Shown here: in pieces, positions 24,044-29,344 of the stretch
Position numbering within the stretch: the first letter of the stretch is position 1
Layout: each line of letters starts with the position of its first letter
Sequence record: NC_031047.1
DNA length: 64,000 nucleotides
Origin: Escherichia phage HY03
Strand: one strand, 5' to 3'
Position numbers and translations under genes: made by a program
The notes under the pieces: generated by a model
Told to the model about the DNA's origin: nothing
Databases searched by the model: none
The model's input: the letters and a program-made list of their open reading frames with translations, nothing else

Positions 24044-24607
24044 ATGAAAACCTATGCCGAATTTTTAACTGAAGCAGCAAAATTACCATCTGAAGCAGAT
24101 CTTACTAAAGTATTCTTCCACTTGGACCCAAAAGACCGGGGCGATTTTCTTAAGTGGAAAGCTAAAGCTATTGAAATGTATAACATCGATAACAGTTCTT
24201 TTACGATGAGCCAAGAAAATAGTTTCAATAAAGCATTTTTCAAAATTTCTAAGAAATTGGCATCTGGCGCTCAGGTTTCTAAATCTGCATTAGCTACTCC
24301 TGAACGTGCACCTGTTAAAATTTCTAAGAATATGTTTGACACTAAAAAATATGTCAATGCTTTGAATAAAGCTCTTGATGCATTGGATGATGCAAAGAAG
24401 GCAGCCCGCGATCTTCAAGACGTGTATACCGATTTTGATCGTAAAACTAAAGGTTCTATTTCAAATAGCGAACGCAATAGTGTAAGTGTTTATTCTGATA
24501 GCCTTGATGTTCTTGGCGATGCATATACTGAAATTAAAAATCGTATTAACACCGCATCTAAGCTAAAAGCTGCTGCAGAAGCTATAATAACTAAACTAGG
24601 TAAATAA
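24044..24607 (+). CDS. internal protein-like capsid-targeted protein (N-terminal CTS MKTYAEFLTEA)
   Basis: 187-aa ORF beginning with the T4 IP capsid-targeting sequence, predicted gp21 cleavage after LTEA. Confidence 0.8.
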   Translation: MKTYAEFLTEAAKLPSEADLTKVFFHLDPKDRGDFLKWKAKAIEMYNIDNSSFTMSQENSFNKAFFKISKKLASGAQVSKSALATPERAPVKISKNMFDTKKYVNALNKALDALDDAKKAARDLQDVYTDFDRKTKGSISNSERNSVSVYSDSLDVLGDAYTEIKNRINTASKLKAAAEAIITKLGK

Positions 24608-25375: not shown

Positions 25376-25969
25376 ATGAACACACTGAAGAAAATTGTTG
25401 AGTTTATTCGCACTAAACTTGGTTCTGCTATGGCTAAAAATTTATCCGTTGAAGAACAGTATACTGCTGCGGCAGCAAAACTACTTGATAAGATTAAAGA
25501 TCTAAAAACTGCTTCTGTTAAATCTATTAATGAAGAAAAGCGTATTCGTGAACTTATTGTCGAAAAGAATAAGCAGGCCGAATCAAAAGAGCGTGAAATT
25601 CGCAAGCTTCTTTCTGAAGGTCAAGATGTAACAATGCATGCTAAACTTGGTTTGCTATATCGTCGAACAGCTGAACAGTTGACTACTAAAGCTGATGGTT
25701 ATGCTGAAATGCGAATTGAAATCGCCAAGAAAGTAGTTGAGTTAGATGATGCTCGCCAAGAACTTGCAGTTAAATTGGAATATATCCGTGAAACTCGTGC
25801 AGCAAATGCCCTTGGAATTAGTACTGCTGATGATGTAGTTGAAATTGCAGCGCTGACTAAGGTTGATATTGAAGATACTCTTGCTCGAGTTGAAACCTTT
25901 AATGGTAATATTTCTGGGGTTGAAACTACCTCTGCCGATGTTCAGGAATACATTAATTCTCTGAAATAA
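25376..25969 (+). CDS. coiled-coil protein, tentatively PspA/IM30 (Vipp1)-like
   Basis: 197-aa all-helical heptad-rich protein whose pattern resembles PspA; assignment from memory only. Confidence 0.5.
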
Positions 25970-26010
25970 TGATAAGGGGCTTAGGCCCCTATTACTTGGA
26001 GTAAATAGGA

Positions 26011-26619
26011 ATGAAAATGCAAAGTGATTTCAATTCAATGTTTGAAGAGTTCCAAAGACAGGTTGATGTTCCAGACCAATTGCTAAATGCTCTTAAACGC
26101 ATGGCAGAAGGACGTAATTATTATTGGGGTTCTTCATATGAAACAGACGAAAGCCTTTCTGGAAGATTTTCCAGAGGTAAAAAGTCTTTAATACGTCCTG
26201 GAATACTTATTAACAGTATTGAATCAATTTATTCATTGACATGCGATTTTGATGTTGAATTTACTGATTTCATTTCTCCTGAATGGACAGTTTGTTATTT
26301 AAACGACGATTTTGATTATCTCGGTGTTTATAGTTTAAGTGACGCATGGTTTAAACGTAACTTACAAAAGTCAAATTTATTCTATATTGATACTACAGTA
26401 AAATTTCAGGGAAAGAAATATTTCTTTACTCTTATAGTTGATTCTGAAACGAAGCATGAAAATAAACGTATTCTTAGTAAAAGAAATATCTTGAATATTG
26501 TTGATGATCTTTTTGATAAATTAGTGGAAAATCCTAATTTTGAAAGTGATTTATTACTAGAAAAATTTGTTAAGGAATGTAGAGAATATGTCAAAACCAT
26601 CACTATACCTTCCAAGTAA
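26011..26619 (+). CDS. hypothetical protein with C-terminal FVKECRE motif
   Basis: 202-aa ORF; C-terminal motif shared with the next three genes. Confidence 0.65.
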   Translation: MKMQSDFNSMFEEFQRQVDVPDQLLNALKRMAEGRNYYWGSSYETDESLSGRFSRGKKSLIRPGILINSIESIYSLTCDFDVEFTDFISPEWTVCYLNDDFDYLGVYSLSDAWFKRNLQKSNLFYIDTTVKFQGKKYFFTLIVDSETKHENKRILSKRNILNIVDDLFDKLVENPNFESDLLLEKFVKECREYVKTITIPSK

Positions 26620-26980
26620 ACCGTTGAAGTATGAATTAAAGCGTCAGATAATTTCTACTGATGTATTAATAGGTCCTGTTATACTTATATCATTTGTAAT
26701 TCTATTGATTATTGGAGGTGTTTTAGATGTTATGACTGATATTGATTCTGGCGAAATACTTGTGTTAATGCTAATTCTTCCATTAATAGTTCCATTTTTA
26801 TTAGTACCTATAAATTGGGTAGGATACTGGTATCAAGGAAGGCATTATCGTAAACGTGTACGTGATTGGAAAGCACAGTGTAAAAAGATTAAAAAGGAAC
26901 ACCAGCTTAAACTTGCTGCGTATGAATTTGATGAAATTATGAAATTTGTTAAGGAATCACGATGCAAAAGCCAAAACTAA
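26588..26980 (+). CDS. small membrane protein (2 predicted TM helices), paralog family
   Basis: 130 aa from ATG; hydrophobic core; C-terminal FVKESRCK motif. Confidence 0.65.
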   Translation: MSKPSLYLPSKPLKYELKRQIISTDVLIGPVILISFVILLIIGGVLDVMTDIDSGEILVLMLILPLIVPFLLVPINWVGYWYQGRHYRKRVRDWKAQCKKIKKEHQLKLAAYEFDEIMKFVKESRCKSQN

Positions 26981-27324
26981 ATAAAGTCAAATATTCGCTT
27001 CCTGAGTCATTTTTAATTTTTGCTGTGGCGTTGGCTGCAGCTCTTGCAGGTAGTATTTTTGGATTGTTAATTGACTGTCTTATTTTAAACATCGACGACA
27101 CAGTAAATATAACAGAAGTTTGGAGTGAGCTTTGTTATACTAAAATTATTTCATTGTTTTCATTCTTTGGTACAATGTTATATTTTCATTATGATAATTT
27201 TAAAATAAATTGGCAAAGAAAAAAGGATTACAAAATACAATTAAAAGAATATAACAACTACGTGTCTTATATTGAAAAAGAATCAATGGAAGAGTTTGTG
27301 AGTGATTGTAGGAAAATCAAATGA
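26962..27324 (+). CDS. small membrane protein, paralog family
   Basis: 120 aa; TM segments; C-terminus EEFVSDCRKIK. Confidence 0.65.
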   Translation: MQKPKLNKVKYSLPESFLIFAVALAAALAGSIFGLLIDCLILNIDDTVNITEVWSELCYTKIISLFSFFGTMLYFHYDNFKINWQRKKDYKIQLKEYNNYVSYIEKESMEEFVSDCRKIK

Positions 27325-27809
27325 TTTTAAAAACTCGCTGGTATGATTTAGATGATGGGGATGATGGCATTTCAGTTGATAGAGTTGATTGGAATGGTTG
27401 TTCCGAAGATACAAAGAAACGATTAATTAGGGAGTTTAGAATGGGATATCAAGCAGCTAAACCATTTACTGTAACAGATGATAAATTCGTGTGTATTCAA
27501 AATGGTCGCGCTAAGTTAACGAATGCCGATTGGTTCACAGATAAGAAGGTTATTCTGTGGTATATCATTAGTCTTCCTATATCATCGTTCGTATTTTACT
27601 TTTTTATAAAAAATCCAATGGACAGAATAGGAGATTGGGTTCTTTTAACTATACTTGTTAATATTTTTACAGCAGCAGTATTATCAGGAATATGGCGTAT
27701 GTTCATTGAAATGCCATGGCGTTTACGCAGACAGCAAAAGATTTTTGATGAAAAGAAATATGCTCAAAATTTAAATAACTTTATCACTGAATGCAGGAAA
27801 TTAAAATGA
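27321..27809 (+). CDS. small membrane protein, paralog family
   Basis: 162 aa; TM segments; C-terminus NNFITECRKLK; ATGA overlap with previous gene. Confidence 0.65.
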   Translation: MILKTRWYDLDDGDDGISVDRVDWNGCSEDTKKRLIREFRMGYQAAKPFTVTDDKFVCIQNGRAKLTNADWFTDKKVILWYIISLPISSFVFYFFIKNPMDRIGDWVLLTILVNIFTAAVLSGIWRMFIEMPWRLRRQQKIFDEKKYAQNLNNFITECRKLK

Positions 27810-28246
27810 AAACATTATCAGCTGGTATTATCTTCATGACAGAAGATAAAGATTTATTTATGGGTCGGGTTACTGGTTCTCGTAAGCCTGGAATGATGGC
27901 ACATCGCTGGGATATTCCAAAGGGACGTGTAGAAAGTTCTGATTTGAATGCACTGGAAGCTGCAAAAAGAGAATGCTTAGAAGAGACCGGTTTTAGCAAT
28001 TATAATCCAGACCTTCTAGAAGACCTAGGTGTATTTAAATATTCTAGTAATAAAGACTTACAGTTATTTTATTATACGATTCCAGTAGAGCATGAGATGT
28101 TTAGAAATTGCCATTGTGAGTCTTATTTTGAAAATAAAGATGGTGTTATGATTCCAGAGATGGACGCTTTTGCTCTTATTCCTCGTACTCAGTGGCAATA
28201 TGTGATGGGTCCTTCACTTTACCGAATAATGAACAACCTCTTTTAA
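27791..28246 (+). CDS. nudE: Nudix hydrolase NudE (e.1)
   Basis: 151 aa; Nudix box GRVESSDLNALEAAKRECLEETGF. Confidence 0.85.
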   Translation: MQEIKMKTLSAGIIFMTEDKDLFMGRVTGSRKPGMMAHRWDIPKGRVESSDLNALEAAKRECLEETGFSNYNPDLLEDLGVFKYSSNKDLQLFYYTIPVEHEMFRNCHCESYFENKDGVMIPEMDAFALIPRTQWQYVMGPSLYRIMNNLF

Positions 28247-28777
<531 letters not shown>

Positions 28778-28870: not shown

Positions 28871-29344
28871 ATGAAAACATATCAAGAATTTATTACTGAA
28901 GCAGCTATTAATTCTCAAATTATTGCTGAATCTTTTACTGATCTTTTGAAATTTAAAAAAGGACAGAAAATCACTGCTGTATTGGATGATGGTACAGAAG
29001 TTGAGATGGATGTACAGGGATATAATTATGCAGTAGATGGAAAACTGTATAATAAATCTCATGCTAAATTTGATTCATTTGACGACTTTGTTAATACAGT
29101 TGAAGATGAAAAAACTCGTCGATCCATTGCAACTGGTGATGCTAAGGTTCTTATGGCACATGGTCATGAACGCATTCGCGCTAAACAGAATAAAATGGGT
29201 GAAGATAATTTTGCATTAGTTGGTTATCAATCTGGTAAGCAAACTTATGGCTATCAGCGTACTGCTACCATGTATAATAAAAATGGTAAAATCGCTTTCG
29301 TGAATAGTAAAGGTTCTATTCAGTACGTTAAATCGTTCAAATAA
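28871..29344 (+). CDS. internal protein-like capsid-targeted protein (CTS MKTYQEFITEA)
   Basis: 157 aa with canonical IP capsid-targeting sequence. Confidence 0.8.
   Translation: MKTYQEFITEAAINSQIIAESFTDLLKFKKGQKITAVLDDGTEVEMDVQGYNYAVDGKLYNKSHAKFDSFDDFVNTVEDEKTRRSIATGDAKVLMAHGHERIRAKQNKMGEDNFALVGYQSGKQTYGYQRTATMYNKNGKIAFVNSKGSIQYVKSFK

Follow-up and report, generated by a model that had tools for sequence, protein, structure and literature searches.

The window analysed here is a stretch of 64,000 nucleotides (nt) from one strand of Escherichia phage HY03 (NC_031047.1), in which four consecutive small genes at positions 26011 to 27809 encode proteins with a related C-terminal peptide. We identify the window as Tequatrovirus DNA and the gene string as e.5, e.4, e.3 and e.2 of phage T4, followed by nudE and the lysozyme gene e. 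Gene names were assigned against the annotated T4 and Shfl2 records. A region of 2.4 kb around the locus matches 512 T-even phage records with 90-97% identity, the top match being Escherichia phage HP3 (97%). The e.5-e.2 proteins exhibit 85-100% identity to those of T4, with the same gene order and the same overlaps. They are full-length members of PHROGs 2607, 2604, 2330 and 2203 (E = 1e-108 to 4e-59; E = 1e-108 for e.5 against phrog_2607). T4 e.5, e.4, e.3 and e.2 correspond to UniProt Y06P, Y06O, Y06N and Y06M and to msp4-msp7 of GenBank L13089. Pfam holds models for the e.5-, e.4- and e.2-type families of T4 (PF26876, PF26873 and PF26896; Phage_T4_Y06P, _Y06O and _Y06M), and close relatives of e.4 and e.2 carry precomputed assignments to PF26873 (Phage_T4_Y06O) and PF26896 (Phage_T4_Y06M), respectively. 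Database labels for e.5-e.2 read hypothetical or predicted membrane protein only. Searches of Pfam (in a copy without these models), NCBIfam, PADLOC and PDB sequences with e.5-e.2 gave no meaningful match, and literature searches on e.2-e.5 found no account of the shared tail.

The genes from e.6 to nudE all lie on the plus strand. The first, e.6 (25376-25969, 197 aa), is annotated e.6/msp3 in T4. It is followed by e.5 (26011-26619, 202 aa), the orthologue of T4 e.5, encoding a predicted soluble protein with the tail LLLEKFVKECREYVKTITIPSK. The e.5 motif KFVKECRE (26563-26586) contains the first copy of a 16-mer (26563-26578) and the AAGGAA Shine-Dalgarno sequence for e.4. The e.4 gene (26588-26980, 130 aa; T4 e.4 orthologue) and the e.3 gene (26962-27324, 120 aa; T4 e.3 orthologue) both encode predicted two-helix membrane hairpins, with the tails EIMKFVKESRCKSQN and ESMEEFVSDCRKIK. 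The e.4 motif KFVKESRCK (26942-26968) holds the second 16-mer copy (26942-26957), another AAGGAA Shine-Dalgarno sequence and, within its CGA-TGC codons, the ATG of e.3. The e.3 motif FVSDCRKIK with its stop occupies 27295-27324. The repeat that we call J3 (TGTAGGAAAATCAAATGA, 27307-27324) falls within it and carries an AGGAAA Shine-Dalgarno sequence and an ATGA stop/start overlap with e.2. The e.2 gene (27321-27809, 162 aa), the orthologue of RB14/Shfl2 e.2, ends in the tail NLNNFITECRKLK. Its motif FITECRKLK plus stop (27780-27809) includes the repeat J4 (TGCAGGAAATTAAAATGA, 27792-27809), which carries a Shine-Dalgarno sequence and an ATGA overlap with nudE. The latter (27806-28246, 146 aa), a Nudix hydrolase according to Pfam (NUDIX, E = 3e-13) and to the T4 annotation, is the final gene of the overlapping string. 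The lysozyme gene e (28283-28777, 164 aa) lies beyond it.

The original prediction, made by a model from the letters of the window, had reported related motifs at the ends of four successive genes. All four are indeed present: FVKECRE from 26566, FVKESRCK from 26945, FVSDCRKIK from 27295 and FITECRKLK from 27780. The e.5 motif sits 10 residues ahead of the stop and not at the extreme end. The pattern F[VI].[DE][CS]R has five matches in the six frames of the window, four of which are the gene ends of e.5-e.2, and none in the real open reading frames (ORFs) of T4 1-50 kb or 119-169 kb. In the approximately 165 kb of T4-type sequence scanned, with T4 95-119 kb outside the scan, no other real ORF holds the motif. 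Among the approximately 76 gene starts in the window, no other overlapping junction yields the peptide. We also searched 3,090 six-frame segments with hidden Markov models (HMMs) of the tails. With the e.3 tail as query, e.5 (E = 0.0077) and e.2 (E = 0.029) come second and third; with that of e.5, e.2 comes second; and with that of e.2, neither e.3 nor e.5 rises above noise.

When 21 tails are aligned on their F/W residue, a hydrophobic residue is found at position -3 in all of them, giving the pattern hydrophobic(-3)-x-x-[FW]-[IV]-x-x-C-[RK] along one helix face. The helical hydrophobic moment ranges from 0.26 to 0.77, with 17 of the 21 tails between 0.45 and 0.77. The e.5, e.4, e.3 and e.2 proteins are each predicted to have, at the C-terminus, a short amphipathic helix of the form hydrophobic-x-x-[F/W]-[I/V]-x-x-C-[R/K]-[R/K]. 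Motif-bearing genes also occur outside the interval from e.6 to nudE, since the Klebsiella phage Roth01, with five or six such genes, has a soluble one after nudE. This Roth01 gene (L024 6386-6694), located between nudE and the lysozyme gene, encodes a 102-aa protein ending in MFIAKCRAK. Two candidate roles of the tail were considered. A metal site or other cysteine chemistry is weakened by the S, I or V found in the e.4 lineage, and e.6 has no cysteine. A gp21 protease site ([LI]-x-E) is rejected, the Klebsiella, Aeromonas and RB43 tails being devoid of E.

Orthologous loci were gathered from other genera, and the motif codons were tabulated for each orthologue. The arginine of the motif is encoded by AGG in Tequatrovirus e.3 and e.2, by AGA in e.5 and in Mosigvirus e.3 and e.4, by CGA in Tequatrovirus e.4 and in Kanagawavirus, and by CGT in the e.2 and e.5-like genes of Dhakavirus. 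The cysteine is TGT or TGC inside one orthologue group, and the Val/Ile position is GTT, GTG, ATT or ATC across orthologues. In the Dhakavirus Bp7, the tail FIAECREYAK of the e.5-like protein is encoded without AGGA, the Shine-Dalgarno sequence of the next gene lying further downstream. In RB43 and EBPL some 30 codons separate the motif (FIHSCKK) from the stop. When nine e.5-like proteins, drawn from nine genera, are aligned, only two columns besides Met1 are invariant, F186 and C190 of the motif, and a BLASTP comparison of the T4-type e.5 with the Bp7 e.5-like protein matches the tail alone. The tail is therefore kept in T4-like phages of nine or more genera, while the remainder of e.5 has changed too far to be recognised. 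For e.2, the F, I, C and R of the motif are invariant across three genera. Because the peptide is kept through changes of arginine codon family, and also where no ribosome-binding site overlaps it, the motif is, on this comparative evidence, a protein feature maintained by selection, neither a by-product of ribosome binding nor a structured RNA. The original prediction was right about the junctions in part, as described below. It missed that the peptide is conserved in nine or more genera, forms the sole conserved part of e.5-like proteins and is syntenic with e.6.

The DNA encoding the peptide serves the next gene as well. The overlaps along e.5-e.4-e.3-e.2-nudE are 32, 19, 4 and 4 nt, each gene beginning inside the end of the preceding one. 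AAGGA or AGGAA is found 6-11 nt before each downstream ATG inside the upstream ORF, an arrangement typical of a coupled operon. That each motif region carries the Shine-Dalgarno sequence and ATG of the following gene, as originally proposed, is confirmed from the sequence. The Shine-Dalgarno sequence coincides with a K-E codon pair (AAG GAA) at the e.5 and e.4 junctions and with an R-K pair (AGG AAA) in Tequatrovirus e.3 and e.2, where the additional -IK or -LK residues separate it from ATGA as a spacer. Mosigvirus e.3 and Dhakavirus e.2 stop at CRK, and there the Shine-Dalgarno sequence comes from the K/E-E codons. Since the ends of the Tequatrovirus proteins differ from their Mosigvirus and Dhakavirus counterparts in both respects together, tail length covaries with Shine-Dalgarno position. 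The purine-rich K/E/R codons of the motif double as the Shine-Dalgarno sequence and, with the nearby stop, as the start of the next gene.

As the original prediction held, there are exactly two copies of the 16-mer AAATTTGTTAAGGAAT (26563-26578 and 26942-26957). Such an exact repeat is not rare in 64 kb of AT-rich DNA, for which we estimate about two pairs. It is largely accounted for by the two genes encoding the same peptide, KFVKE, with a biased codon choice and under the requirement of AAGGAA as a Shine-Dalgarno sequence. When the gene-start contexts of the window are compared in 2,850 pairs, the e.5/e.4 and e.4/e.3 junctions come 5th as a pair, and the e.3/e.2 and e.2/nudE junctions come 13th, while cross pairs between the two junction types have ordinary ranks. 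The genes that follow the e.5 and e.4 junctions begin similarly (MSKP and MQKP). The proposed repeated junction element is hence better described as two DNA-level pairs (ranks 5th and 13th) than as one element repeated four times. The minimum free energy of the junction RNAs is 0 to -3.5 kcal/mol, no better than for shuffled sequences, as expected for translation-initiation regions. A structured RNA element at the junctions was rejected on this folding result. Promoter or terminator cassettes were rejected too, with 22 promoter-like sites found against 21.5 expected.

The prediction that three of the proteins have transmembrane helices holds. Hydropathy gives two segments each in e.4 (26-42 and 57-73), e.3 (17-33 and 57-73) and e.2 (77-93 and 108-124), and zero in e.5. 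The short loop of e.4 and of e.3 is acidic and free of K and R, the flanks are basic, and the e.4 tail contains 15 K+R. The e.4, e.3 and e.2 proteins are predicted to be small inner-membrane hairpins with both ends in the cytoplasm (N-in/C-in). The e.2 protein has an N-terminal predicted soluble domain (1-75) ahead of its two-helix membrane module. The single-sequence structure model of e.5 is poor (predicted local distance difference test score, pLDDT, of 41), with the tail (181-194) helical in the model. Among alleles of e.4, e.3 and e.2, variation is greatest in the predicted periplasmic loop and helix 1. Two e.4 variants (P0132 and P0135) have an entirely different helix-1/loop segment, and in a 69-aa e.4 variant cluster (P0197) both transmembrane helices are deleted in frame, the N-terminus and the tail being kept.

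The four genes were originally taken for tandem paralogues. This probably holds for e.4 and e.3 only, and there weakly once the tail is removed. An hhalign comparison of e.4 with e.3 covers 110 columns (E = 1e-5 to 2e-5). Without the last 8-13 residues, the similarity persists in columns 1-48, which comprise the N-terminus and helix 1 (E = 3e-4 to 6e-4, against 0.1 for the reversed control). For this pair, the similarity thus does not reduce to chance matches in AT-rich sequence between proteins unrelated outside their last eight residues, which is what had been named as the finding that would speak against paralogy. The PHROG family of e.4 also matches e.3 over its full length (E = 0.002). 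Between e.2 and e.3, the match is confined to the last 13-14 residues (E = 2e-4 to 3e-5). The locus therefore appears to contain one probable paralogue pair, with e.2 and e.5 linked to it by the tail, and e.2 also by the two-helix layout. A profile of merged e.4, e.3 and e.2 sequences, in whose alignment MAFFT misaligned the e.4 tail, was searched against 1.84 billion representatives and retrieved 10 clusters, all from T-even-type phages and with no bridging relatives. Klebsiella phage Roth01 has a clear e.4 orthologue (E = 9e-11). We suppose that e.4 and e.3 would have arisen through tandem duplication of a unit spanning one "motif + Shine-Dalgarno + ATG" junction to the next, and that e.2 and e.5 may have the tail in common through older shared descent or through transfer of the tail and junction.

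Recombination at the junctions is visible in natural genomes. In T2 and IME340, e.3 is directly followed by nudE with an ATGA overlap, and e.3 ends CRKLK, not CRKIK. The junction DNA is of the e.3 type until GAT and of the e.2/nudE type from TGC AGG AAA TTA AAA TGA AAA CA. This hybrid composition places the crossover within TGCAGGAAA, the part of the motif common to both junctions, and the T2-type deletion junction consists of the left part of J3 and the right part of J4. Phages lacking e.2 thus keep its last two residues on e.3, and nudE still overlaps the e.3 stop (ATGA). A 200-nt probe of the T2 junction matches as a single uninterrupted piece in at least 40 records (T2, SV76, PP01, PST, AREG1, Ozark and others), and in phages that have e.2 it splits into two pieces separated by about 685 nt. 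By tblastn there are about 446 e.2-bearing against about 497 e.3-bearing Tequatrovirus records, which suggests that roughly 10% of Tequatrovirus records are without e.2. Judging from these genomes, the repeated coding junction serves as a recombination substrate and removes e.2 exactly in T2-like phages. Of the alternatives originally offered, tandem duplication or cassette shuffling through the junction, the loss of e.2 through a crossover in TGCAGGAAA (at least 40 records) and the probable duplication of e.4 and e.3 stand, and a duplication of all four genes is not supported.

Other rearrangements also affect e.2. In UFV05 and UFV10, e.4 residues 1-31 are fused in frame to the e.2 membrane module and e.3 is deleted, the join being at a 7-nt microhomology (TCCTGTG) in transmembrane helix 1. 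The 106-aa chimera (P0143; OP555981.1 of UFV10, L021 2501-2821) replaces e.4, e.3 and e.2. The e.2 gene of the T4 reference (NC_000866, 67490-67960) is frameshifted to 102 aa, in contrast to the intact 162 aa in the window. The T4 frame departs after FFIK to end in IQWTE, and the rest, including FITECRK, continues in other frames. This truncated allele is also found in other phages (clusters P0192 and P0193).

Upstream of the string, e.6 looks like a PspA/Vipp1 protein of the IM30, ESCRT-III superfamily. Its single-sequence AlphaFold2 model (pLDDT 74) shows a helical hairpin (2-80/86-145) and a further helix (151-196). The top 10 Foldseek matches of the model in the PDB are all Vipp1/IM30 over the full length (E = 2.8e-4 to 2e-2), with CdvB, CHMP1B and PspA lower. 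One e.6 orthologue matches Pfam PspA_IM30 (PF04012, E = 3.7e-4). A BLASTP comparison of e.6 with E. coli PspA is colinear (E = 0.032). One Klebsiella phage record labels its e.6 copy "shock protein A". No paper on a T4 PspA homologue was found in a literature search. The e.6 gene occurs in 1,105 phage records, among them those of Escherichia, Klebsiella, Enterobacter and Aeromonas phages, a much broader distribution than that of its neighbours. Its synteny was examined in Tequatro-, Mosig-, Dhaka-, Karam-, Pseudoteven-, Biquarta- and Ceceduovirus and in a Klebsiella phage, nine genera by our count. A motif-bearing e.5-like gene directly follows e.6 in eight of the nine, and lies one gene further on in Ceceduovirus (Assk).

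This arrangement recalls bacterial envelope stress systems, in which PspC's cytoplasmic domain at the C-terminus binds PspA and LiaI anchors LiaH (PMC5596341, PMC9239133). As in Psp and Lia, a gene that looks PspA/IM30-like precedes, in the same direction, genes for small inner-membrane proteins whose C-terminal segments are predicted to be cytoplasmic. The present locus differs in being phage-encoded and in combining several candidate membrane partners with a soluble partner, all of which share a short tail. The tail could be a docking helix that recruits e.6, with e.4, e.3 and e.2 acting like the membrane partners PspC or LiaI. That it docks e.5, e.4, e.3 and e.2 to e.6, a proposal drawn from synteny and architecture, seems to us rather unlikely as matters stand. 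We are equally tentative about the wider proposal that T4-like phages encode a Psp-like membrane maintenance system, in which e.6 would be recruited or regulated by adaptors sharing the docking helix Phi-x-x-F-[IV]-x-x-C-[RK]. The soluble e.5 would be one such adaptor, beside one to four membrane hairpins of the e.4/e.3/e.2 type, and recombination through the junctions would tune the number of adaptors.

The motif might alternatively have no function as a protein, and merely be what overlapping genes converge on when they need a Shine-Dalgarno sequence, a spacer and ATG(A). Its codons do form a Shine-Dalgarno sequence at every junction of the window (AAGGAA in e.5 and e.4, AGGAAA in e.3 and e.2), the -IK/-LK residues accompany the shift from K-E to R-K as if tail length were fitted to spacing, and the junction RNAs are unstructured like initiation regions. 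However, a Shine-Dalgarno sequence does not explain the F, the I/V or the C, nor an arginine kept through AGG, AGA, CGA and CGT. The motif of the Bp7 e.5-like gene has no Shine-Dalgarno sequence, that of RB43 and EBPL is remote from the stop, and among the approximately 76 gene starts of the window the peptide is found at no other overlapping junction. Such convergence is very improbable. Chance likeness between short AT-rich gene ends is less credible still, and practically negligible. The motif is short, about two exact 16-mer pairs are expected in 64 kb, and the tail HMMs reach only E = 0.008-0.03. Yet the four matches stand at consecutive gene ends with zero in other real ORFs, and the conservation of the motif across nine genera already refutes chance as an explanation.

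More serious is the idea that a segment comprising tail, Shine-Dalgarno sequence and start was spread by recombination or gene conversion onto unrelated genes. In that case e.5, the protein with the e.2 N-terminal domain and the Klebsiella 102-aa protein would not be whole-gene duplicates, and for e.2 and e.5 the idea overlaps with the explanation that we prefer. The bodies of these three proteins are unrelated to e.3/e.4, junction- and microhomology-mediated recombinants occur naturally, and the e.5 and e.4 tails combine a 16-nt identity with similar N-termini of the next genes (MSKP/MQKP). Against this, the e.5 tail is ancient, occurring together with e.6 in nine genera and so implying long vertical retention and not a recent transfer, and no donor-recipient pair with DNA identity beyond 16-18 nt was found. 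We consider the spread of such a segment possible, if on balance unlikely. A somewhat lower probability goes to the proposal that the proteins are diversifying inner-membrane effectors, acting for example in superinfection exclusion or in interference with host or defence functions as does T4 Imm, with the tail binding a cytoplasmic target of the host and not e.6. It would fit the variability of the periplasmic loop and helix 1 (replaced wholesale in P0132 and P0135), the repeated loss, truncation or fusion of e.2, and the restriction of the families to T-even-type phages (10 clusters in 1.84 billion proteins). Nevertheless, no match to defence or anti-defence models was obtained, and the strict synteny of a soluble motif protein with e.6 would be left unexplained.

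The best explanation as a whole is a T4 early gene string with a selected, dual-coding and recombining tail, which we regard as fairly probable. Several observations weigh against it or against parts of it. The e.4 lineage has S, I or V at the canonical cysteine position, with a cysteine two residues on in Tequatrovirus and Mosigvirus, so that the cysteine chemistry of the tail is not universal. The margin for e.4/e.3 paralogy is modest, because a reversed-sequence control, e.4 against the e.2 module, reaches E = 2e-4 from transmembrane composition alone. Without the tail, the e.2 C-terminal module scores E = 0.035-0.13 against e.3 and 0.04-0.14 against e.4, both worse than the reversed controls. 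Beyond its tail, e.5 is not significantly similar to e.3 or e.4, with neither of which it was aligned directly. The genes from e.5 to nudE would be translationally coupled judging by their geometry. We infer that the e.2 polymorphism reflects deletion, not insertion, because e.2-type genes adjoin nudE in Dhaka- and Kanagawavirus. The assignment of e.6 draws on a model built from one sequence and on sequence matches below threshold (E about 1.4-4 when its profile is searched against PDB sequences). Finally, e.4, e.3 and e.2 have no Pfam or NCBIfam match to the PspB, PspC or LiaI families.

The string can be compared with other arrangements of T-even phages. Repoila et al. in 1994 reportedly described a capsid-targeting sequence in the internal proteins (IPI/II/III and the polymorphic ip loci). 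Here, too, a short terminal peptide is found on unrelated neighbouring genes, and its conserved coding DNA is usable as a recombination site. The capsid-targeting signal is N-terminal, cleaved by the prohead protease and directed to the capsid, whereas the present peptide is C-terminal, belongs to membrane and cytoplasmic proteins and overlaps the next start. The leader MKTY.EF...E is absent from e.5-e.2, whose N-termini are MKMQ, MSKP, MQKP and MILK. Two genes of the internal-protein type elsewhere in the window (24044-24607 and 28871-29344) do possess a capsid-targeting-like leader, MKTY.EF.TEAA. Their start contexts rank 2nd of the 2,850 pairs, an N-terminal counterpart of the shared-peptide pattern. 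Arbiol, Comeau and Krisch are said to have described in 2010 the PeSL, mobile regulatory cassettes in the hyperplastic regions of T4-type phages. The resemblance lies in short boundary repeats that mediate gene gain and loss among T4-like phages. A PeSL is however non-coding, an early promoter with a stem-loop, and our repeat is coding and unstructured, with a promoter signal not above background. Ordinary coupled phage genes also exhibit ATGA stop/start overlaps and Shine-Dalgarno sequences inside the upstream ORF, but the overlapped coding sequence is here a conserved peptide repeated at four successive junctions. The locus therefore seems to combine known kinds of features, namely tandem small membrane genes, overlapping and likely coupled genes, and boundary shuffling in the hyperplastic regions of T4, and to add a C-terminal peptide that is dual-coded, deeply conserved and associated with a PspA-like gene.

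Some further features of the region deserve mention. The same hyperplastic region also holds another tandem family, whose members are small and acidic (70-101 aa) and end in W-x-(S/T)-S-S-x(0-2)-C before the stop. Dhakavirus Bp7 has four of them consecutively (L020 2183-3221), Mosigvirus JN02 one after e.3 (L003 3731-4036) and Karamvirus two (myPSH1140, L026 4799-5325). In the gap between e.6 and e.5, a GC-rich hairpin at 25975-25990 on the plus strand (folding free energy -13.3 kcal/mol) corresponds to a stem_loop annotated in T4 L13089. A scan for terminator-like sequences flags it on the minus strand only. L13089 names the genes from e.6 to nudE msp3 to msp8 and annotates an early promoter before e.6 and the stem-loop after it. 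T4 places the nudE start at an ATG at 27791, inside the E-C codons of e.2 (MQEIKMKTL..., 151 aa), and Shfl2 and others use the ATGA-overlapping ATG at 27806 (146 aa). The NCBI names "sulfurtransferase" (several e.3/e.4 proteins) and "DNA primase" (one protein) have no Pfam or NCBIfam support and are probably annotation errors copied across records.

The e.5-e.2 genes are conserved early genes of the best-studied phage, and in five or more gene families nothing appears to be better conserved than the tail. Being syntenic with a PspA-like gene across T4-like phages, it offers an experimental handle on them. One DNA stretch acts as a selected peptide, as the ribosome-binding site and start of the next gene, and as a recombination site, a combination that allows a whole gene to be removed with the reading frame and the stop/start overlap intact. 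If the link to e.6 is true, T4-like phages would encode an ESCRT-III/PspA system with membrane adaptors of its own.

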